A DNA stretch of 63,725 bases, counting the filler, from Stramenopiles sp. TOSAG23-3 (lineage: Eukaryota): NCBI GenBank assembly GCA_900128585.1. It is 28 parts of 28 records of this genome, joined end to end, with 100 filler letters (N's around TTAATTAATTAA, not from the genome) between each part and the next. Parts side by side here need not be neighbours in the genome. Positions count along the whole stretch, not along the records: positions 61,564 to 63,725 come from LT645028.1; 27 more parts are not named here. One strand, given 5' to 3'. Position 1 is the stretch's first letter. Each line of letters opens with the position of its first letter. Positions 8,108 to 63,725 of the stretch are shown one piece after another. The notes beneath the pieces were generated by a model that was not told the DNA's origin, did not search any database, and was given only the letters and a program-made list of their open reading frames with translations. A program made the position numbers and the translations under genes.

Positions 8108-8135
8108 AGCAATAAATATTCTAAAAGATTTAATT

Positions 8136-8308
8136 AAAAACAAGAAAATTGGCTGTTATTATAAGTAATTAAATTTAGCTTCCTCATACCCTAATCCTAA
8201 CTTGATTCTGTAATTTTGTTTCTTTGTTGGTTGTCAATCGCCGAAGGGATATAATTTCCAATGAACAATTAAAATATGATAACATTTTTAAAAACAAAAA
8301 ATTGGCTG
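8136..8308. mobile_element. Cluster of element fragments: family B (8136-8187, -), family D (8188-8228, +), short core (8290-8308, -)
   Basis: AAAACAAGAAAATTGGCTGTTATT...AAATTTAGCTTCCTCAT followed by ACCCTAATCCTA..TTGATT. Confidence 0.75.
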
Positions 8309-16569: not shown

Positions 16570-17676
16570 ATGTTGGTGGCAAAGAGGAGCAGGCGAAACC
16601 ACGGTCCAACTAGTGGGCTGTTCCTGAGACAAGAAAATGCCATTGATATTGACTACGAACGCATGCCTCGGCCAGAGTGCAAAAGTAAAAAATGCGAACT
16701 GGACTGCTGCAATGGAAACAAGGAGGAGGTGAGGGACGCGTCGTACGTCATGGAGTGCAGAAAAGCTGCGGTCGACGGCTACTTCCAAGCTGGCGGGCAT
16801 TCAAACGGGCAGTTTGTTATGTGCTTGATTATTGCACGAGGGTTAAAAAAAACAAGGTTGCAGCCGTCCAAGTCCCGGCGATTTGACTCGCGCCCAAGGC
16901 TCCAGGAAGGGCGGTGCATCTGGTGCCGGACCCTCGAGGTAGCGGAAAAAGACGCAAAGCACAATTACCACCCAAGACGATGCCCTAACTACGAGGATGG
17001 CATTAAATGGTTACAAACCCATCCAGTAAGAGTCGCAAAAAAAGAATGGGAGTACTCACTTCCATCATATGATCATAAATTTGCCCCATATGTTGTGTCA
17101 AGGACGTTCTTCCAGAGTTTTTATTGCATCGCTAGTACGGAACGGTTGATTAGGCTGAAACAGATAAGTGCGTCCACAAACCCAAACAAGTGGAGACAGA
17201 AAAGCGGCGCTGGGGGAAAGAACAAACTAGACCATAAAATTCGGGAAAAGTTTTTTGAATTTTTGGGCCGGGTGCCGAAGAAGAGAGTCGTGTCATCCTC
17301 TGGGGAGTTAGAGCGAGTCATGTTTCAAGAGGGTGTCACGAAAGAGGCTTTATGGTACGAGTTTTGCTCCGTTGAAGATCCCTCCTTCCATGGACAGTGT
17401 GTACGAGTAGGACATAAGCTGACGTACACGACCACGCACAAGAACTTTATAACACCTGAAGATGCAGTCTACGAAAATGATTTAGCGAAAGGCAAGATTT
17501 ATCCAGTCATCCGATATCACATGGCCCTGGAACTTATCAAAGCATATAGTGAAGAGAATCATGTCCTGTTTCAAAAAATACCACCTGCACAACGCAGAAA
17601 GCGCAAGCGCAGCGAGTTGGACGAACTAATGTTGGTGGACGATGACAACATGGACATTGAACTTCTAGCTGTTTAA
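16570..17676 (+). CDS. Hypothetical Cys-rich basic protein resembling the N-terminal half of a DNA transposase
   Basis: CKSKKCELDCC, YSL...VSRTFFQSFYCI, TKEALWYEF pattern; C-terminal RRKRKR NLS; no DDE domain. Confidence 0.5.
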   Translation: MLVAKRSRRNHGPTSGLFLRQENAIDIDYERMPRPECKSKKCELDCCNGNKEEVRDASYVMECRKAAVDGYFQAGGHSNGQFVMCLIIARGLKKTRLQPSKSRRFDSRPRLQEGRCIWCRTLEVAEKDAKHNYHPRRCPNYEDGIKWLQTHPVRVAKKEWEYSLPSYDHKFAPYVVSRTFFQSFYCIASTERLIRLKQISASTNPNKWRQKSGAGGKNKLDHKIREKFFEFLGRVPKKRVVSSSGELERVMFQEGVTKEALWYEFCSVEDPSFHGQCVRVGHKLTYTTTHKNFITPEDAVYENDLAKGKIYPVIRYHMALELIKAYSEENHVLFQKIPPAQRRKRKRSELDELMLVDDDNMDIELLAV

Positions 17677-17686
17677 ATGATAAGCC

Positions 17687-17750
17687 AGATTTCAGTTCGC
17701 AGTACATTAATTTTAATTACTTAAATAACAGCCAATTTCCTTGAGTTTTT
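17687..17750 (+). mobile_element. Family A copy
   Basis: AGATTTCAGTTCGCAGTACATTAATTTTAATTACTTAAATAACAGCCAATTTCCTTG. Confidence 0.85.
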
Positions 17751-38866: not shown

Positions 38867-40950
38867 CATGGCCGGCGCAAGCCCATCTTCATCGCCTCGA
38901 TGCGGTTGTCTTTAATAATTCTCCGCTTTTCTTCCTCTCGTTTTTCATCCAAAATTGTCTTTTTCGCTTCCTCTCGCCATTTTTTTGCTGACAACTTCTT
39001 TCGTTTCTTCAAAAATGATTCTTTGTTTTCGACAAGCTCCAGTGCTGTTAAGTTCTCTAATTGAACCTTTTCCAATTTTGCAACAGCTTGCTCAGCTTGC
39101 CTCAACGACGTGAACCCGTGCTGGTCCACTGCGGATGGGTTCTCACCATAAATATGTTTTCGTTTTCTCATATTTTCTAAGTCAACGTTGGCTTTGTTGG
39201 ACTTATTTTGGGCCAATTTCAAATCATCTTTAGTGTCAATAAGTTGGTCTTTTGTTTCTTCTTTTAGTTGTTTCATTTTCGTCCGAATCGTCTTAAGGCC
39301 AACTTTTCCTTTCAAAGTGTCCTCAGTCTTCTTTTCGATCAACATACCAAACACTTTGATATCGTACTCTTCTCTCTTTTTTCGCTTCGCTTCCTCGTCT
39401 GTGACTACAACCTTTTGAATGACGGCCGCTTCTTGAACTAAATGTTTGGCCTTCTCGTCTTCTACACTTTCATGGGGGTTTAAACAACGGCATTCTGTTT
39501 GCATGGGTTCCACAGCGCTGCATTGGCCATACGGTCCCACAAAGCCCTGCAACGCCTCCAGTATTAACGGTATTTCAATGTCCAAATGGTTTTTCTCATT
39601 AATTTTCCCCCCCATGAACCCTTCGTGAATATCATCGCGAACCAAAATATAGCCATCAATATCGTTCCCGCTCAATTGTGGCATTCTTCCAGTTACGAGC
39701 GATAAAAGGCTCCGTTTCCCATGAGCACCGTCCAGCAGTACTCTAGCTGTAAACTGAAAGCACTTCGTATCCGCGCCCTCCTCCCCCCATGGCCGTGTGA
39801 CCAACTCACTCAACACCTCATCGCCTTCGTACCACTTATTTTTTGTCAGAGAATTGGTTAGCCTCTTCAAGCAACGCAGCATGATGTTGATCAAGCAATG
39901 ATAAGTTTCTCGCCCTCGCTTGTACCTAAGATCCCCTAAATTTTGTAAGATCTCCTCACCACTCCATTTGCACAAATAGATGTCAGCATTTAAATAAGTA
40001 TCAATGCGGTTCTCAAACTCATCAATATCTTCAAGCAACAAATGTTGAGTACCACCCTGAAACAGCCCCACCGTCTTTGGGTATAAACTATTTGTTTCAA
40101 TAGTAAACTGAAGTTTCTCCATCCCCGCCAGCAGCACCTGCTCGCGGCGAAGCCTTTCCACCAAATACCGCTCAATGCTCTGAACCCCTTCCTCTGCAAT
40201 ATGAATAGGTGGGGATCGAAGTGGGTTGCCATCAAATCGACACTCCGTCAACGCCTTCAATTTGGCAAACCGCAGCGGGAGATCAATAACGTTGTTGTTC
40301 TGAAGCCACAGTTTCTTCAGCACAGTAGTCAACGGACCTCCCACAAATTGCTCTGAAAACTCTGAAATGGAATTCGAAGCGACCTGTAACTCTGCCAATG
40401 AAGCCAACTGTCCGATCACAGCTGGTATTTCCTCAAAGCGGTTATGGTTGATGTTGAAGCTCTCTAAATATTTTAGGCTGTGAAACGTGTCGGGCAACGT
40501 GCTAAGTTCATTGCGCTCAAAGTTTAAAACTTTTATTTTTCGTAAATCGGCGATGCTATCGGGTAGAGAGGTGAGTTTGTTTATTTGGACTTTTAGGGCA
40601 CGCAGGTTCCTTAACTTTCCTATCTGCACCAGTATATGATCGTTGTGACGCTGAGCTATGACGTTCTTTTCCGTTTGCACGTATGTATTTGATAGTAACA
40701 TTTGCACCATACTGGACACTACCAGTTCTGATTCCTCCCGTTGCCGATGATCCTTTTCTTCCAGAAGCATGTGTTCCAGCCCACTGATCTTCCCTTCCAA
40801 CTGACCGACGATAGTTTTATGGCGCAAGACTAACCGAGACTTGATTTTTTCTGCGTTTGCGATCAGAATTTTGGACAGATCTTTTTGTGCATTGTGAACC
40901 GCTCGGTTAACGGCGTTGGCCTCGCGTTGTGCGCTAGAGGATATGACATT
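38867..40950 (-). CDS. Leucine-rich-repeat + coiled-coil protein (partial at both ends)
   Basis: NKLTSLPDSIADL, NELSTLP, NRFEEIP, GNPLRSPP. The frame stays open upstream of the ORF call, up to the inversion junction. Confidence 0.85.
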
Positions 40951-41039
40951 TTTTGGATGAAAAAACGAGAGGAAGAAAAGCGGAGAATTATTAAAGACAA
41001 CCGCATCGAGGCGATGAAGATGGGCTTGCGCCGGCCATG
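40945..41039 (+). repeat. Inverted copy of the contig's other end (38867-38960)
   Basis: About 79 nt exact reverse complement, plus a degenerate junction. Confidence 0.95.
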
Positions 41040-41139: not shown

Positions 41140-41280
41140 CTTTCAAGTTGTGTGGTGTGCAATGTGCGTCTGTCTCTCCGGTGTTCAAAACTTGATGGTT
41201 TTTTTATAAAATGCCAAAGGACGAAAACTCGCCATGATAACATAAAGTATCGATTAGTAAAACCAAAAGAGCAAAGATAA
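41140..41280 (+). CDS. 3' end of a hypothetical protein
   Basis: Open frame LSSCVVCNVR...KPKEQR* from the contig start. Confidence 0.35.
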   Translation, partial: LSSCVVCNVRLSLRCSKLDGFFIKCQRTKTRHDNIKYRLVKPKEQR

Positions 41281-41832
41281 GTTCGCAGTACATGAAGGAA
41301 TGTAAACCTTGAATGTCTAAATTTAGAGTTCAGTTCGCAGTACATTAACTTTAATAAAAATAAAACATACTATAAAACATACTATATATTTTGTTTTTTG
41401 ATATGTTTTAAGACTCTCAAGATTATCCCAATTGTAGAACTGATCTAATTTTGCAACTGCTAAAATTCATATGATATCATATCATATCACTTAAAGTCGT
41501 TCAGTACCTCCAATTTAAATTACTTAAAAATAACAGCCAATTTTCTTGTTTTAAGTATCGCAAGCATACTAGGAGAATTAACTGTTCTAAAAATCTGAAG
41601 AAAATAAGATTTTAAGATACTCTTTAAATACGGAGATCTTGATTACCTCAAACTCGTACGGTATCATATGATGTCCCACATCCAGCAACAACTTTGCATT
41701 TTCTAAGAAAATAAAACATTTTTGTACAAAAGTAAAATACAAGCTAAATGGACAAAAGGAGCATATTCATTTTCGCGGTACACGAGAAAGCTAAATTTTA
41801 ATTACTTCAATAACAGCCAATTTTTTGTTTTT
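41281..41832 (+). mobile_element. Same-orientation chain of element fragments (41281-41355, 41405-41418, 41502-41552, 41757-41832)
   Basis: Repeated GTTCGCAGTACAT and AATAACAGCCAATTTT(C/T)TTGTTTT segments, plus a family D start GTTTTAAGACTCTCA. Confidence 0.85.
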
Positions 41833-41864
41833 AAAGAATTCTTTAGAGAGAGGCCGCTTTGCTT

Positions 41865-43412: not shown

Positions 43413-43492
43413 TTGGCTGTTATTTAAGTAATTAAAATTAATGTACTGCGAACTGAAATCTAGATTTAGACATTCTAGGTTTGCATTCCTTA
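43413..43492 (-). mobile_element. Family A copy
   Basis: Identical to 2296-2372 on the opposite strand. Confidence 0.85.
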
Positions 43493-47174: not shown

Positions 47175-47770
47175 TTCACTTCTTCTTCTTTTTCTTACTA
47201 TTAATTTTTTTTGTTCTTGTGTTGTTGTTGTTGTGTTTGTTTTAAAAAAAAATGTTTTTTTATTATTTTTTTTGAATTCTTTTTCTTCTTCTTCTTCTTC
47301 TTCTTCTTCTCTGTTTTTTCTTCTTCTTCCTTTTCTTCTTCTTCTGTTGTTTCTTCTTCTTTCTTCTTCTTCTTCTTATCATTCCAGCTGTTGTTTCTTC
47401 TAATAAATTATCCTCATTCTTCCTATAGTGTTATACTATTATAGGTATAATGTAAGTTAATATAAACATAACATGGTGGTTCTCTTTTCAAATTTTTTTA
47501 TTTTTTTTATTCTTTCTTCTTCTTCTTGTTCTTCTTGTTCTTCTTCTTCTTCTTCCTCTTCTTCTTCTTGTTGTTGTTCTTCTTCTTCTTTCTTCTTCTT
47601 CTTTCTTCTTCTTCTTCTTCTTCTTCTTCTACTTCTTCTTTCTTCTTCTTCTTTCTTCTTCTTCTTCTTCTTCTTTCTTCTACTTCTTCTCTCTTCTCTC
47701 TTCTTCTTTCTTCTTTCTTCTTCTTCTTCTTCTTCTTCTCTTCTTCTTCTTCTTTCTTCTTTCTTCTTGC
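47175..47770. repeat. (TTC)n-rich low-complexity tract
   Basis: Long imperfect TTC/TTTC runs. Confidence 0.95.
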
Positions 47771-52397: not shown

Positions 52398-53283
52398 NNN
52401 NNNNNNNNNNNNNNNNNNNNNNNNNNNNNNNNNNNNNNNNNTTAATTAATTAANNNNNNNNNNNNNNNNNNNNNNNNNNNNNNNNNNNNNNNNNNNNAAT
52501 TATTAATCAAATCAAGGTCGTCTATTACGTGTGCGAACATTTTAAAGTGTACACTAATTGCACTGCGCCAAAACTTCTTTCTTTCTTTGTTTGTTTGTTT
52601 CTTTCTTTCTTTCTTTCTTTCTTTCTTTAAATAATAAATAAAATATGTGATGATTGATTGATTATAATTTTTATCTCAATTTATTCATTCATTCACTTGA
52701 CTTATTTATAGACGACTAGTTGGTATAATTTAATGCTACCTACGTCCTGTTATTATTCGTACCGTACTTCGTTCATTCAATACAGGGGTGTTTTTGTTGT
52801 TGTTTTATTGTTAGTAGGAAGTAGCAAGGCAATAAATAATAAAACAAGAAATAATAAATAAATCCAAAATTTCGTTATGATTTTAACTCCGTGCACATTG
52901 GAAATGCTGTGATAATGTACTACTTAACTGGTAAGAAGAAGAAGAAGAAAGAAAAAAAAGTAAAATGTTGTAGTCTATTATATAATAATATATAATTAAT
53001 ATTAATAATAAATAATAATAATGATGGTGTTATATAGTCTAATAATGGTGTTATATATATTGAGAGAAAGAAAAATCAATCAACATTAAAACAATCAGCA
53101 ATCTTCAATCGAATCCAATCTAACATAATAGGCAAAATCTTTACTTTAATTTAGAAAACAGTAGGCATAGGCAAACCAGTCTATACGGGATTGTACATAT
53201 ATATATTCGCAGTTCAACAGTTTTCATTTCTTGCAACGAGTTTCAGCGCATCGAAACCATCCTTGCAAGCTTGGTAGGGTTCA

Positions 53284-53769
53284 ATGAGCGTGTTAGCCGG
53301 TGAGTCGCCCGAAAACTCTCCGAGAGATAGCAAACTTTGTAACGATGATCTTGTGAAAGCCAGGGACAGTCTGTTCGCTTTTATGGACCAGATGGACATC
53401 AGGGATAGCGTTAAATTAGAAGATCTTGAGGACGATTCAGGCGATTCAGACGATTCAGACGATTCTGCTGAATCTGAAGATTCAGCCGAGAAGTCTGCAA
53501 TGACCACAGCAAAGCATGTAAAATCACCAATTTTGATGAAAGCATTAAAGGAGAGTAGAAACCAAACCGAAAGTTTTCATGCCCCTTCCCCGACTGTTGG
53601 GCCCAAGCCGCCGGCACCAAAGGTGAGGACGGCACCGCGGAGCGCAAACTTAGAAGATCGTTTTCCGAAATTAATATCGGACGGAAAACGCCCGAAAGAA
53701 AAGAAGCCCCAAGTGTCCTCTTGGTTCGCTTGCTGTGCAGGCGAAAGAGACGACGACGATTCAGACTGA
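53284..53769 (+). CDS. Small acidic hypothetical protein with near-terminal CC motif
   Basis: 161-aa ATG-initiated ORF ending SSWFACCAGERDDDDSD. Confidence 0.7.
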   Translation: MSVLAGESPENSPRDSKLCNDDLVKARDSLFAFMDQMDIRDSVKLEDLEDDSGDSDDSDDSAESEDSAEKSAMTTAKHVKSPILMKALKESRNQTESFHAPSPTVGPKPPAPKVRTAPRSANLEDRFPKLISDGKRPKEKKPQVSSWFACCAGERDDDDSD

Positions 53770-53893
53770 GGGTTGCGTTCGTTGACATGGTGCGTGTTTC
53801 TCTTTATGCATTAGACGAGGTCAGAATTGTAATTATTAAATAGAAGAGTAGAGAGACCCGAAACGCAAGAAACTATATCATACAGATGTGCAT

Positions 53894-54159
53894 ATCATAA
53901 CATTAAATCAAGAAAATTGGCTGTTATTTAAGTAATTAAAATTAATGTACTGCGAACTGAACTCTACTGGTGTGATTTTAGTATAATCAACATTTTATCC
54001 TGAGTGAAAACGCGTTTAACGCCATAAGACCCATAATCAACTTCCTCATCCAATATCTCACTCATAGAAAAAACAAATTATGTAGTATGCTTTAGATCAT
54101 AAACATTAAATGTTTATTTGTGATGTAAGAAAAAAATAACAGCCAATTTTTCTTGTTTT
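53894..54159. mobile_element. Family A insertion 53909-54095 (-) with target-site duplication, plus opposite core 54134-54159 (+)
   Basis: Flanked by ATCATAACATTAAAT (53894-53908) and ATCATAAACATTAAAT (54096-54111). 54028-54068 matches 63673-63713. Confidence 0.85.
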
Positions 54160-54280
54160 AGCTAATTTTTTGATTATGATATTAAGTGATCTTAAAACTT
54201 GTATTTATATCATATCATATGTTGAAGAAAACAAATTTAAGTCAACGTTGAAAAACAAAAATATGTCTTTAACAAATTTC

Positions 54281-54666
54281 TCACTTTTCACCGCAGCACA
54301 TACCGAAAAAGCTACTGATGGACTTCTTTTCCTTTTTCGCACTTCTAGCTTCAATCTTAGACAACACCGTTTCGCCACCATCCATTTTTCTCAGACGCCT
54401 CGCCAGATCATTTATTTCAGACGCGAGGCGAAGTTTCTCTTGTGACTGCGACGGAGCAGCTCTGGACGCATTCTCCTCTGCCGTCTTTTTTGGAGTAATT
54501 GGTTCTAAATTCCTGCGATCCACGGCGCTATCGTCACTGTTGACGCAGTCGTCATCGTTTCCAGGTTCGTGATACAGGGCCTTTTCTGTCTCAAAAACTT
54601 TCTCTAATCTCTGCTTGTGCGCTTTAAAGTTTTTCTCCATCCCATTCAAGGTAGACGCAATCGACG
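54281..54666 (-). CDS. C-terminus of a hypothetical protein ending in a CC motif (5'-partial)
   Basis: Frame ends KKSISSFFGMCCGEK*. Confidence 0.7.
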
Positions 54667-54805
54667 NNNNNNNNNNNNNNNNNNNNNNNNNNNNNNNNNN
54701 NNNNNNNNNNTTAATTAATTAANNNNNNNNNNNNNNNNNNNNNNNNNNNNNNNNNNNNNNNNNNNNAGGAGACATTGTTCTTGAACTGACACCTTCTTCT
54801 TTTCT

Positions 54806-54883
54806 TTAATTTTAATTACTATAAAAAATAACAGCCAATTTTTCTTGTTTTAATTTATAGATAAACTGAATTAGTTTTTTTTT
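54806..54883 (+). mobile_element. Core copy (54806-54852) followed by family E motif (54859-54883)
   Basis: TTAATTTTAATTACT...AATAACAGCCAATTTTTCTTGTTTT; AGATAAACTGAATTAGTTTT. Confidence 0.8.
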
Positions 54884-59300: not shown

Positions 59301-59538
59301 GGGCAATCAGACTGCTGTCGTCGCTGGAAACAGAAAGAAAAACATAAATAAAATCCCAAGACATGGCCCCCCAGGGAAGAACAAGGGCAGGAAGAGGCAT
59401 AAGCGGATTCTGAATAGCACACCACGGTCGCTTGGAAACCCAAACATGAGCCACCATTTGCAAAATTTTGATTACGAGACGCCGGAAGAGGCTAAAAGAA
59501 AGCACCGCGAGACCATGATGAAAGAAAAAAGAAAATGA
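59301..59538 (+). CDS. 3' end of a basic hypothetical protein (not in the ORF track)
   Basis: Open frame GNQTAVVAGNRKK...RETMMKEKRK* with TGA at 59536-59538. Confidence 0.6.
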
Positions 59539-59870
59539 CTTAACATAAAACAAGAAAATTGGCTGTTATTTAATGACTTAACATAACAAAAAAATAATGG
59601 CTGTTATTATGAGTACTTAAAATTTACCTTCCTCATGTACCGCGAATATAAATCTGCTCCTTATGACTTAAAATATGTTTATCTTATCAATACTTCCAAA
59701 TCGTATCTCTTACCAAACTGCGCATACTCTTAATTCTTACGTCTTCGCTTAAATAATAACCAAAGTTTTAAGACTCTCATTTTAAATCAAATACTACTTC
59801 AAATCCAACCCTAATCCTATCTCGATTTTTTAATTTGATTTGTGTTATTATAATTTCGCTTAAATAATAA
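59534..59870. mobile_element. Three insertions with target-site duplications: core 59549-59571 (-), family B 59587-59662 (-), family D 59760-59854 (+)
   Basis: AATGACTTAACATAA at 59534 and 59572, ATGACTTAAAATA at 59663; TTCGCTTAAATAATAA at 59744 and 59855. Confidence 0.88.
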
Positions 59871-63377: not shown

Positions 63378-63456
63378 GTTTTAAAACTCTCATTTTAAAT
63401 CAATTACTAATTCAAATCCAACCCTAATCCTATATTGATTTTTTAATTTGATTTTT
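63378..63456 (+). mobile_element. Family D copy
   Basis: Close match to 59765-59841 (GTTTTAA.ACTCTCATTTTAAATCAA...CCAACCCTAATCCTAT...GATTTTTTAATTTGATT). Confidence 0.85.
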
Positions 63457-63559: not shown

Positions 63560-63725
63560 ACAAGAAAATTGGCTGTTATTTAAGTAATTAAAATGAATGT
63601 ACTGCGAACTAAAATCTAGATTTAGACATTCTCGGTTTACATTCCTTAGGTGGATTAACACTGCCTCCACATGACCCATAATCAACTTCCTCATCCGGTG
63701 TCTCACTCATAGATGACTCATTCCC
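63560..63725 (-). mobile_element. Longest family A copy, runs off the window end
   Basis: Contains all family A segments seen elsewhere; the minus frame reads GNESSMSETPDEEVDYGSCGGSVNPPKECKPRMSKSRF*FAVH. Confidence 0.88.

Follow-up and report, generated by a model that had tools for sequence, protein, structure and literature searches.

We found that the segment at positions 63560-63725 of the window (the whole stretch of 63,725 nucleotides that was analysed) is very probably what remains of the 3' end of a non-LTR (LINE-type) retrotransposon, in a dead copy that is truncated at its 5' end and has an internal deletion. Taken jointly with this identity, and with the same high confidence, the element carries an ORF for a reverse transcriptase (RT), a long linker, a Cys/His motif, an R2-like PD-(D/E)XK endonuclease and a disordered tail, followed by a 3' untranslated region (UTR). 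In the copy itself, only about the first third was formerly coding, and the remainder is untranslated tail. A sequence-only reading of this DNA had taken the segment for the 3' end of a protein-coding frame with two diverged subfamilies, and its copies for truncated copies of longer protein-coding retroelements; the graded starts and the extended ORF described below bear out the latter. The element represents a new family of a known kind, namely the non-LTR retrotransposons with a restriction-like endonuclease (RLE), here dispersed in gene 3' flanks, and is largely ordinary. In the literature on stramenopile and RLE non-LTR retrotransposons, MAST-4 retrotransposons and the non-specific HERO clade, in which sequence motifs are not text-searchable, the family was not found described.

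The window consists of 28 contigs, sorted by size from 2195 down to 2162 bases and joined by 100-base linkers (44 N, TTAATTAATTAA and 44 N; for example, 2196-2295). Contigs adjoining in it are therefore not genome neighbours, and position 63725 is the end of a contig besides being the end of the stretch. The long intron-free ORFs in the window encode dynein heavy chain N-terminal region, Rit1, GT47 exostosin and zinc-dependent alcohol dehydrogenase domains. Over the stretch, Rfam gave no family at the gathering threshold, and no tRNA, tmRNA, rRNA or snRNA was found. The best named relatives of the Rit1-like protein are from brown algae (38-45% identity), with one nameless match at 99%, and by these homologues the host is perhaps loosely near the stramenopiles. 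The last contig was found in at least 20 runs from 15 studies, nearly all of them marine or seawater metagenomes, and the host is an uncultured or little-known marine protist.

Using all-against-all BLAST of the 28 contigs, 13-14 copies of the repeat, 30-166 nt long, were detected on 10 contigs, and all but one of them finish in the same terminal module. The terminal 26-mer has 6 matches (up to 3 mismatches) against 0.00 expected by chance, and its 16-nt core occurs 12 times (up to 2 mismatches, 61 kb of the stretch) against 0.18 expected, so the common terminal ~35 nt pointed out earlier is indeed far beyond chance. The copy at 63560-63725, read on the minus strand, has three parts. First, an ORF-tail remnant (63647-63725), which translates as ...GNESSMSETPDEEVDYGSCGGSVNPP and matches residues 704-727 of the predicted protein P0121 by tblastn (E 3.5e-4), is bounded by the contig end at 63725 and by an internal deletion at 63647, where an alignment junction and loose ends coincide. 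Second, a non-coding A-type 3' UTR unit (63595-63646; AAGGAATG...AGTTCGCAGTACATT) was delimited by alignment and by its frames, and it is the stretch that had been read as KECKPRMSKSRF*FAVH. Third, the terminal module (63560-63594; AATTTTAATTACTTAAATAACAGCCAATTTTCTTGT) is common to all subfamilies and forms the 3' end of the element, according to word counts and a consensus of 76 instances.

The other copies in the window are of the same kind. A second copy with a piece of the ORF tail (MSEILDEEVDYGSYG...), also 5'-truncated and internally deleted, lies at 53903-54068 (minus strand; BLAST, alignment and tblastn). A-type 3' UTR fragments were identified by BLAST at the contig starts 2296-2392 (plus) and 43413-43492 (minus), the latter lying 26 nt beyond the stop of the Rit1-like gene, and at 41248-41355 (plus), where BLAST and sequence reading gave a fragment that lacks the terminal module and has the AGTTCGCAGTACAT box twice. 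B-type fragments, the family B of the sequence-only reading, lie at 41747-41837 (plus; BLAST and alignment) and at 59533-59681 (minus), the latter with a terminal module that is tandemly duplicated with a period of 38 (BLAST, tandem and core search). A C-type fragment at 8124-8239 (minus) matches the 3' UTR of L045, the best copy found outside the window, at 95% over 105 nt. The remaining copies are a fragment of the last ~59 nt at 17687-17745 (plus; BLAST), starting 11 nt beyond the stop of the gene 16570-17676, and, by BLAST and core search, an isolated inverted terminal module at 54131-54160 (plus), a short terminal fragment at 41502-41556 (plus), a terminal fragment at a contig start (50228-50273, plus) and another at 54802-54857 (plus).

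Four repeat copies sit at contig ends (2296, 43413, 50228 and 63725), and because several contig ends lie in the repeat, it explains the breakage of the assembly into ~2-kb contigs. Microsatellites of the (GAAA)n/(TTCT)n type at or near contig ends (13757-13831, 31855-31933 and 52575-52628) and a long TTC-rich tract (47258-47768) are further causes of assembly breaks. The contig starts 2296-2372 and 43413-43489 share exactly 77 nt at 100% identity, one being inverted relative to the other, which looks like an assembly-graph (k-mer) overlap through the repeat, and the two contigs may adjoin or may each end in the same repeat node. In another contig, inverted copies of 88-89 nt at the two ends (38867-38954 and 40951-41039; 98.9% identical) may reflect either a genuine inverted repeat or a hairpin made by the assembly.

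The assembled-read view, in which Logan contigs of two DNA-library and two RNA-library runs were aligned on the last contig, agrees with these boundaries. Summed contig depth is ~5-7 in the unique part and rises to 39439 (run X1) and 22063 (run X3) in the core bin; such a sum (39439 against ~6 in X1) does not give the number of copies. At 63560 the boundary is abrupt, with 29 (X1) and 24 (X3) loose ends of diverse sequence, and additional branch points were found at 63592-63594, 63647 and 63673. The G at 63595 is private to this copy, since T stands there in 29969.5 of 30128.9 summed contig depth (76 contigs, X1). Past 63725, 30 further letters are agreed by four X3 contigs. The same contig carries a second dispersed repeat (63378-63456, also at 59765-59841; 93.5% over 77 nt), at which the summed contig depth reaches ~5700, unique DNA having ~6. 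This repeat has the piece ..TAGGATTAGGGT.. in common with the C-type 3' UTR and a terminus of its own in other loci, and may be the tail of a related element.

When metagenomes were scanned with a 21-nt word from the coding part, 44 loci were obtained, of which 42 are related and two (L003 and L036) are chance matches. One of them, L015, is 98.6% identical over 2105 nt to the window's contig 52498-54666, which carries the copy 53903-54068, and therefore comes from the same or a sister organism. Similarity among the loci reaches far further upstream than in the window, and the copies have one 3' end in common (...AATAACAGCCAATTTTCTTGTTTTT). The consensus of 76 distinct core instances ends ...AATTACTTAAATAACAGCCAATTTTCTTGTTTTTAA / ...AATTTTAATTACTTAAATAACAGCCAATTTTCTTGTTTTTAA, beyond which conservation decays; this end is T-rich and has no poly(A), as the sequence-only reading had proposed. 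The 5' starts, on the other hand, are graded. Copies aligned to L012, the longest copy then in hand, begin at 8, 40, 258, 573, 583, 876, 942 ... 1338 of 1409, all running towards the same 3' end, and at the protein level they start at residues 356 to 734 of the predicted protein P0122 (tblastn). The loci were selected by a word near the 3' end and are thus a biased sample, but the unselected copies in the window (30-166 nt) show a like pattern. Graded starts with a common 3' end are characteristic of retroposition with 5' truncation. Clusters and nested copies also occur, as do head-to-tail joints where the upstream copy breaks off within its own terminal module, and the last 25-38 nt of the element are often tandemly duplicated.

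These repeats resemble MITEs in being short, abundant, AT-rich and intergenic, and one locus mimics inverted termini: at 53903-54160, the inverted module lies ~60 nt from the 5' end of the copy 53903-54068, so that the pair looks like an element of ~256 nt with inverted ends of ~21 nt. A MITE-like DNA transposon with terminal inverted repeats (CAAGAAAATTGGCTGTTATT ... AATAACAGCCAATTTTCTTG) is nevertheless exceedingly improbable. Across the 76 instances only the 3' end is conserved, the opposite end being graded; an inverted partner is lacking for most copies, and longer copies grade into a 1191-codon ORF with RT motifs. At a density of one module per ~5 kb, and with the copies strongly clustered, head-to-head pairs should arise by chance, and no matching flanking duplication was seen by eye at 53903/54160. 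Inverted repeats at both termini together with a fixed target-site duplication were thus not found, and the pair at 53903-54160 is fortuitous.

The minus strand of 63594-63725 translates as GNESSMSETPDEEVDYGSCGGSVNPPKECKPRMSKSRF*FAVHS, as stated in the sequence-only reading, and the stop codon TAG of this copy against CAG at 2296 and 43413 was seen in all three. When aligned with L013, L001 and L040, however, the copy lacks ~115 nt that these have, namely the last ~18 codons with the ORF stop and ~70 nt at the start of the 3' UTR; the internal deletions of L043 and of the copy 53903-54068 are different ones. The coding frame of L013 closes with ...STSENDSQD*, and KECKSRMSKSRFQFAVH* (KEC...FAVH) lies in a different frame with many stops upstream. 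The apparent joined frame of 63560-63725 is made only by the ~115-nt internal deletion. What had been described as the 3' end of a coding frame is coding in its upstream part (402 and 1191 codons in longer copies), and its last 17 codons (KECKPRMSKSRFQFAVH) belong to the 3' UTR. Similarly, an ORF running to FAVH had been proposed, but in intact copies the ORF ends 100-230 nt before the 3' terminus.

At least three variants of the 3' UTR were distinguished, which are 100-230 nt long and all end in the same ~35-45-nt module. In the 54-nt A unit, at least 5 of the 13 copies break the proposed frame (by TAG, by TGA twice and by two 2-nt insertions), and the variable sites counted by eye are spread 4/2/3 over codon positions 1/2/3. 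The B copies do read by eye as had been claimed, but longer copies show the B segment behind the ORF stop and the AAGGAATG..AAACC stretch that the A type also has, in place of ~40 nt of the A type, so that the family B peptide is not a coding C-terminus. The third type, C, is found in L045 and at 8124-8239. The likeness in SRF.FAVH is DNA homology of a ~21-nt box (AGATT..TTCGC.GTACA), of which the A-type UTR has two. The TGC/TGT and CCT/CCG differences are seen in the copy alignment, yet these differences, which had been called synonymous, and the SRF-FAVH conserved with different codons both fall in the non-coding 3' UTR. A, B and C are 3' UTR variants of related subfamilies, not coding C-termini. 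Of the two subfamilies proposed earlier, the idea of subfamilies holds, as several exist, and A and B themselves are alternative ~40-nt UTR segments behind the same kind of ORF. The sequence-only reading had also named the pattern that would speak against it, namely no long ORF in this frame in extended copies and substitutions evenly spread over codon positions; a long ORF was found in the upstream frame, and the substitutions in the A unit are spread as given above. When the 3' UTRs of six copies were folded, no excess stability was found (z -0.08 to +1.6), and a structured protein-binding RNA motif as in R2 is therefore unsupported.

The frame SETPDEEVDYGS continues upstream for 113-402 codons in several loci (402 in L012) and for 1191 uninterrupted codons in L045, and is truly coding. 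Its end in intact copies is ...TDSDH(A/K)WST.ENDSQD*. A longer-protein search gave two matching predicted proteins, P0121 (744 aa, 100% identical over 82% of the query) and P0122 (776 aa). Using HMMER, 265 representatives were found at E<=1e-3, 162 at 1e-10 and 44 at 1e-30, and all of the best 150 of the 265 are fragments of up to 419 aa. L045 (contig CALGTL010000157.1, 4101 bases) has one 5'-open ORF that is 94% identical to P0122. This contig is filed in a MAG labelled Dehalococcoidia bacterium and has a long palindrome in its 3' flank; it is probably misbinned eukaryotic DNA. Selection differs along the ORF, the dN/dS between L045 and L012 being 0.31 for the structured part (133 codons) and 1.03 for the tail (153 codons). 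The tail is disordered and acidic/Ser-rich with a conserved SDEEVDYGS motif, and apart from this acidic motif it is weakly constrained.

In the copy at 63560-63725, an ATG at 63711-63709 opens an ORF of 35-38 codons (MSE.PDEEVDYGS...), which could be read as a small peptide gene family in which this ORF is the functional unit. An in-frame ATG does precede the conserved DEEVDYGS in many copies, and 15 of 41 distinct copies keep the canonical end (13 stop exactly at NDSQD*, codon 32, and 2 after a 3-codon insertion, at codon 35). The same frame, however, is open far upstream of the ATG over the 113-402 and 1191 codons given above, the predicted proteins of 744-776 aa end in this peptide, its tail evolves at a dN/dS of ~1, and 24 of the 41 copies end early or late, with 2 more cut by a contig end. 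A peptide gene thus has next to no probability, and we read the ORF as the tail of the long retrotransposon protein.

The putative RT is seen only as its C-terminal part, at the start of the L045 ORF, which reads ...RQGTQQGDPIG... and, ~50 residues on, ...AFADDLNIV...; we take QGDP and FADD to be RT motifs B and C. Pfam gave no RVT_1 or endonuclease family for the 1191-aa ORF even at E<=10, which is unsurprising for RVT_1 because half of the domain is missing. On P0121, P0122, P0273-P0275 and P0276, Pfam gave a weak zf-primase match only (E 0.007); there was no match for the element protein in NCBIfam, and HMMER searches of PDB sequences gave no R2 protein and no relevant match. An upstream walk with P0123 led to P0275, which begins MLAAFADDLTIVAP. 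In the Atlas cluster nearest to P0275, RVT_1 is found on 20% of the members (score 0.92), which is a lead only, and the structure prediction of this RT-proximal protein is poor (pLDDT 50.7, pTM 0.25). P0275 and P0123 had no tblastn match in the 44 loci and the window, and related-locus search found no relative of P0275 among genome contigs or viral contigs; the DNA core was likewise absent from viral contigs. No locus reaches the 5' part of the element, in which an RLE-type retrotransposon would be expected to have an N-terminal zinc-finger/Myb DNA-binding domain; the L045 ORF is 5'-open.

Downstream of the RT, the Cys/His motif CPC-x7-C-x8-H-x3-C-x2-H-x2-H was found in P0121, P0122 and P0276, with a spacing that presumably differs from that of the R2 CCHC motif. 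The AlphaFold (AF2) model of P0122 has a mean pLDDT of 60.4 and a pTM of 0.48; residues ~350-620 are predicted with a pLDDT of 77-95, and the protein is predicted to be disordered after 621. When this model was compared with VIA-align, the top 7 of 855 chains were all R2 retrotransposon proteins (Z 9.0-10.9, which is above, not far above, the typical best Z of 7-8 for unmatched models). Six of these chains superpose with an rmsd of 3.6-4.2 Å over 189-197 residues, and 8gh6 with 6.8 Å over 238 residues; the aligned parts are residues 183/291-608 of the model and the last ~210-375 of R2. Next in rank were the PD-(D/E)XK endonuclease of influenza PA (PA-N; Z 7.2) and the Prp8 endonuclease-like domain (Z 7.0). 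Foldseek on the same model gave no match at E<=0.001, the best being a restriction enzyme at 0.08, with R2 at 0.16-0.69. The predicted fold of the nuclease thus best matches the C-terminal zinc knuckle and restriction-like endonuclease of R2. In its sequence, AD (strand 2), WDV (strand 3) and KGQKY (KGAKY in P0121) at the start of helix 2 were found. The R2Bm endonuclease has the motifs PD, D/E and K..KY with an unusual placement of the lysine (PMC4838377). AD, WDV and KGQKY correspond to these, and we therefore count a putative PD-(D/E)XK nuclease C-terminal to the RT among the features of the element, while the R2 motifs RH and RG.W were not clearly present in the nuclease sequence by eye. 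The domain check proposed in the sequence-only reading thus gave RT motifs and, by prediction, a restriction-like endonuclease in the extended ORF, and GIY-YIG, which had been among the domains proposed, did not appear at E<=10 in 1191 aa.

Another class of retroelement (Penelope-like, DIRS-like or Dualen-like) instead of an R2-type RLE LINE was also considered. Head-to-head and partial tandem arrangements are typical of Penelope-like elements. Such arrangements exist in L007, and the N-terminal part of the element protein is not in hand; in addition, Dualen carries both APE and RLE (PMC4640811). This assignment is quite unlikely, as searches of the 1191 aa in hand at E<=10 gave neither GIY-YIG nor any family of tyrosine recombinases or RNase H, Rfam at E<=1 gave no hammerhead or other family in 5 loci (save a chance lncRNA row, E 0.79), and the predicted nuclease domain best matches the R2 RLE. 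Further upstream, the protein could carry an APE or a GIY-YIG domain. The L007 locus itself (contig Ga0099797_100526, 4800-8750) is a ~4-kb cluster of nested, tandem and head-to-head element copies with coding pieces of 118, 160, 208 and 280 codons in several frames.

None of the 12 cores in the window falls within a long ORF; all are close to the 3' ends of genes, and both orientations relative to the nearest gene occur. Among the loci, the closest upstream non-element ORF (>=200 aa) shares the strand of the element in 23 of 25 cases, the closest downstream ORF has the opposite strand in 20 of 24 (near-duplicate loci being dropped by a hand-made list), and the distance from the upstream ORF end to the probe motif is 54-683 nt, with 11 and 26 nt behind stop codons in the window. 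Gene 3' ends thus face the copies, most of which lie between convergent genes. The ORFs upstream belong to unrelated host genes (for example, M1 peptidase, PI3-kinase, fumarase, PIGA, ion channels and hexosaminidase), and 14 of the 15 that were scanned have Pfam families. The 3' flanks of the 76 instances are alike only in their T/A-richness; a single specific repeated target such as rDNA, spliced-leader or snRNA genes or microsatellites, as used by R2, R4, NeSL and CRE, was not found, and target-site duplications were not made out by eye at two copies.

From this placement, the module could be a host regulatory signal, that is, a conserved motif for 3'-end processing or termination (AAATAAC ... 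T-rich) common to the genes of a compact genome. It holds an AAUAA-like word followed by a U-rich run, and the core is found in RNA-library contigs, which agrees with such a role as do the 12 cores and the strand counts. We nevertheless regard a host signal as very unlikely to be the explanation, because the motif ends a long ORF-bearing repeat with 5'-truncated copies, tandem and nested clusters are frequent, and both orientations relative to the nearest gene occur. Moreover, with ~12 cores per 28 contigs, most genes have no core; the RNA runs leave parts of the last contig uncovered, and their contigs cannot show transcript ends. A host signal also fits secondary co-option and leaves the origin of the repeat unexplained. 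The MITE, small-peptide-gene and pure host-signal readings were accordingly rejected. For the retrotransposon, we put forward, as a tentative and rather doubtful suggestion, that an RLE LINE integrates at transcription-termination sites, or that its thousands of terminal fragments were co-opted as host poly(A)/termination signals.

By analogy with R2, the copies would most probably have arisen by target-primed reverse transcription, in which the endonuclease of the element protein would nick DNA and reverse transcription would start at the 3' terminal module of the element's own RNA, which the RT may recognise. Reverse transcription would usually stop early, leaving copies with a common 3' end and any upstream start, and template jumping could yield the head-to-tail joints and the terminal mini-duplications. 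Many dead 5'-truncated copies may be tolerated only in the gene 3' flanks of a compact genome.

These results are useful in several respects. First, the repeat is one to mask for annotators of marine protist genomes and metagenomes, and a tempting mis-annotation as a small ORF is corrected. Second, RLE-type LINEs are mostly low-copy and site-specific and are under development as gene-insertion tools; a highly abundant, dispersed and sequence-divergent relative that is missed by Pfam, in an uncultured marine eukaryote, widens the known diversity of this enzyme class. Particularly, the tie to gene ends would, if true, be an unusual targeting mode for an R2-like enzyme, and if the bias towards gene 3' flanks reflects targeting, a different mechanism of target choice would be at work.

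In comparison with known systems, the element has its likenesses among the RLE LINEs. HERO elements, which occur in animals, are one such group. As classified in PMC4640811, the RLE-encoding LINE clades are CRE, R2, R4, NeSL and HERO, of which four are mostly target-specific and HERO has many families without target specificity. In this respect, the dispersed element resembles HERO. RLE-type LINEs are also present in stramenopiles, to which the host may belong: Utopia, of the NeSL clade, is found in oomycetes in U2 snRNA genes at low copy number and has an RNase H upstream of the RT (PMC4640811), unlike our element, whose copies are many and dispersed and in which RNase H was not seen in the part in hand. 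The closest relation is to R2 (R2Bm, R2Tg and R2Pm; 8gh6, 9dou, 9nl2, 9nl3 and 8iby). Unlike R2, the element is not in rDNA or any single target, has no sequence similarity to R2 detectable by HMMER, has ~170 disordered residues after its nuclease, and has 3' UTRs for which folding gave no stable structure. We counted ~640 residues between FADD and the Cys/His motif on the L045 ORF sequence, and the stretch from RT to Cys/His in R2 is far shorter. Like R2, the element has one ORF in which a putative RT is followed by the Cys/His motif and a C-terminal PD-(D/E)XK nuclease with its putative catalytic lysine in K..KY at helix 2, R2 is the best structural match of the predicted model, and both leave 5'-truncated copies for which a poly(A) tail is not needed.
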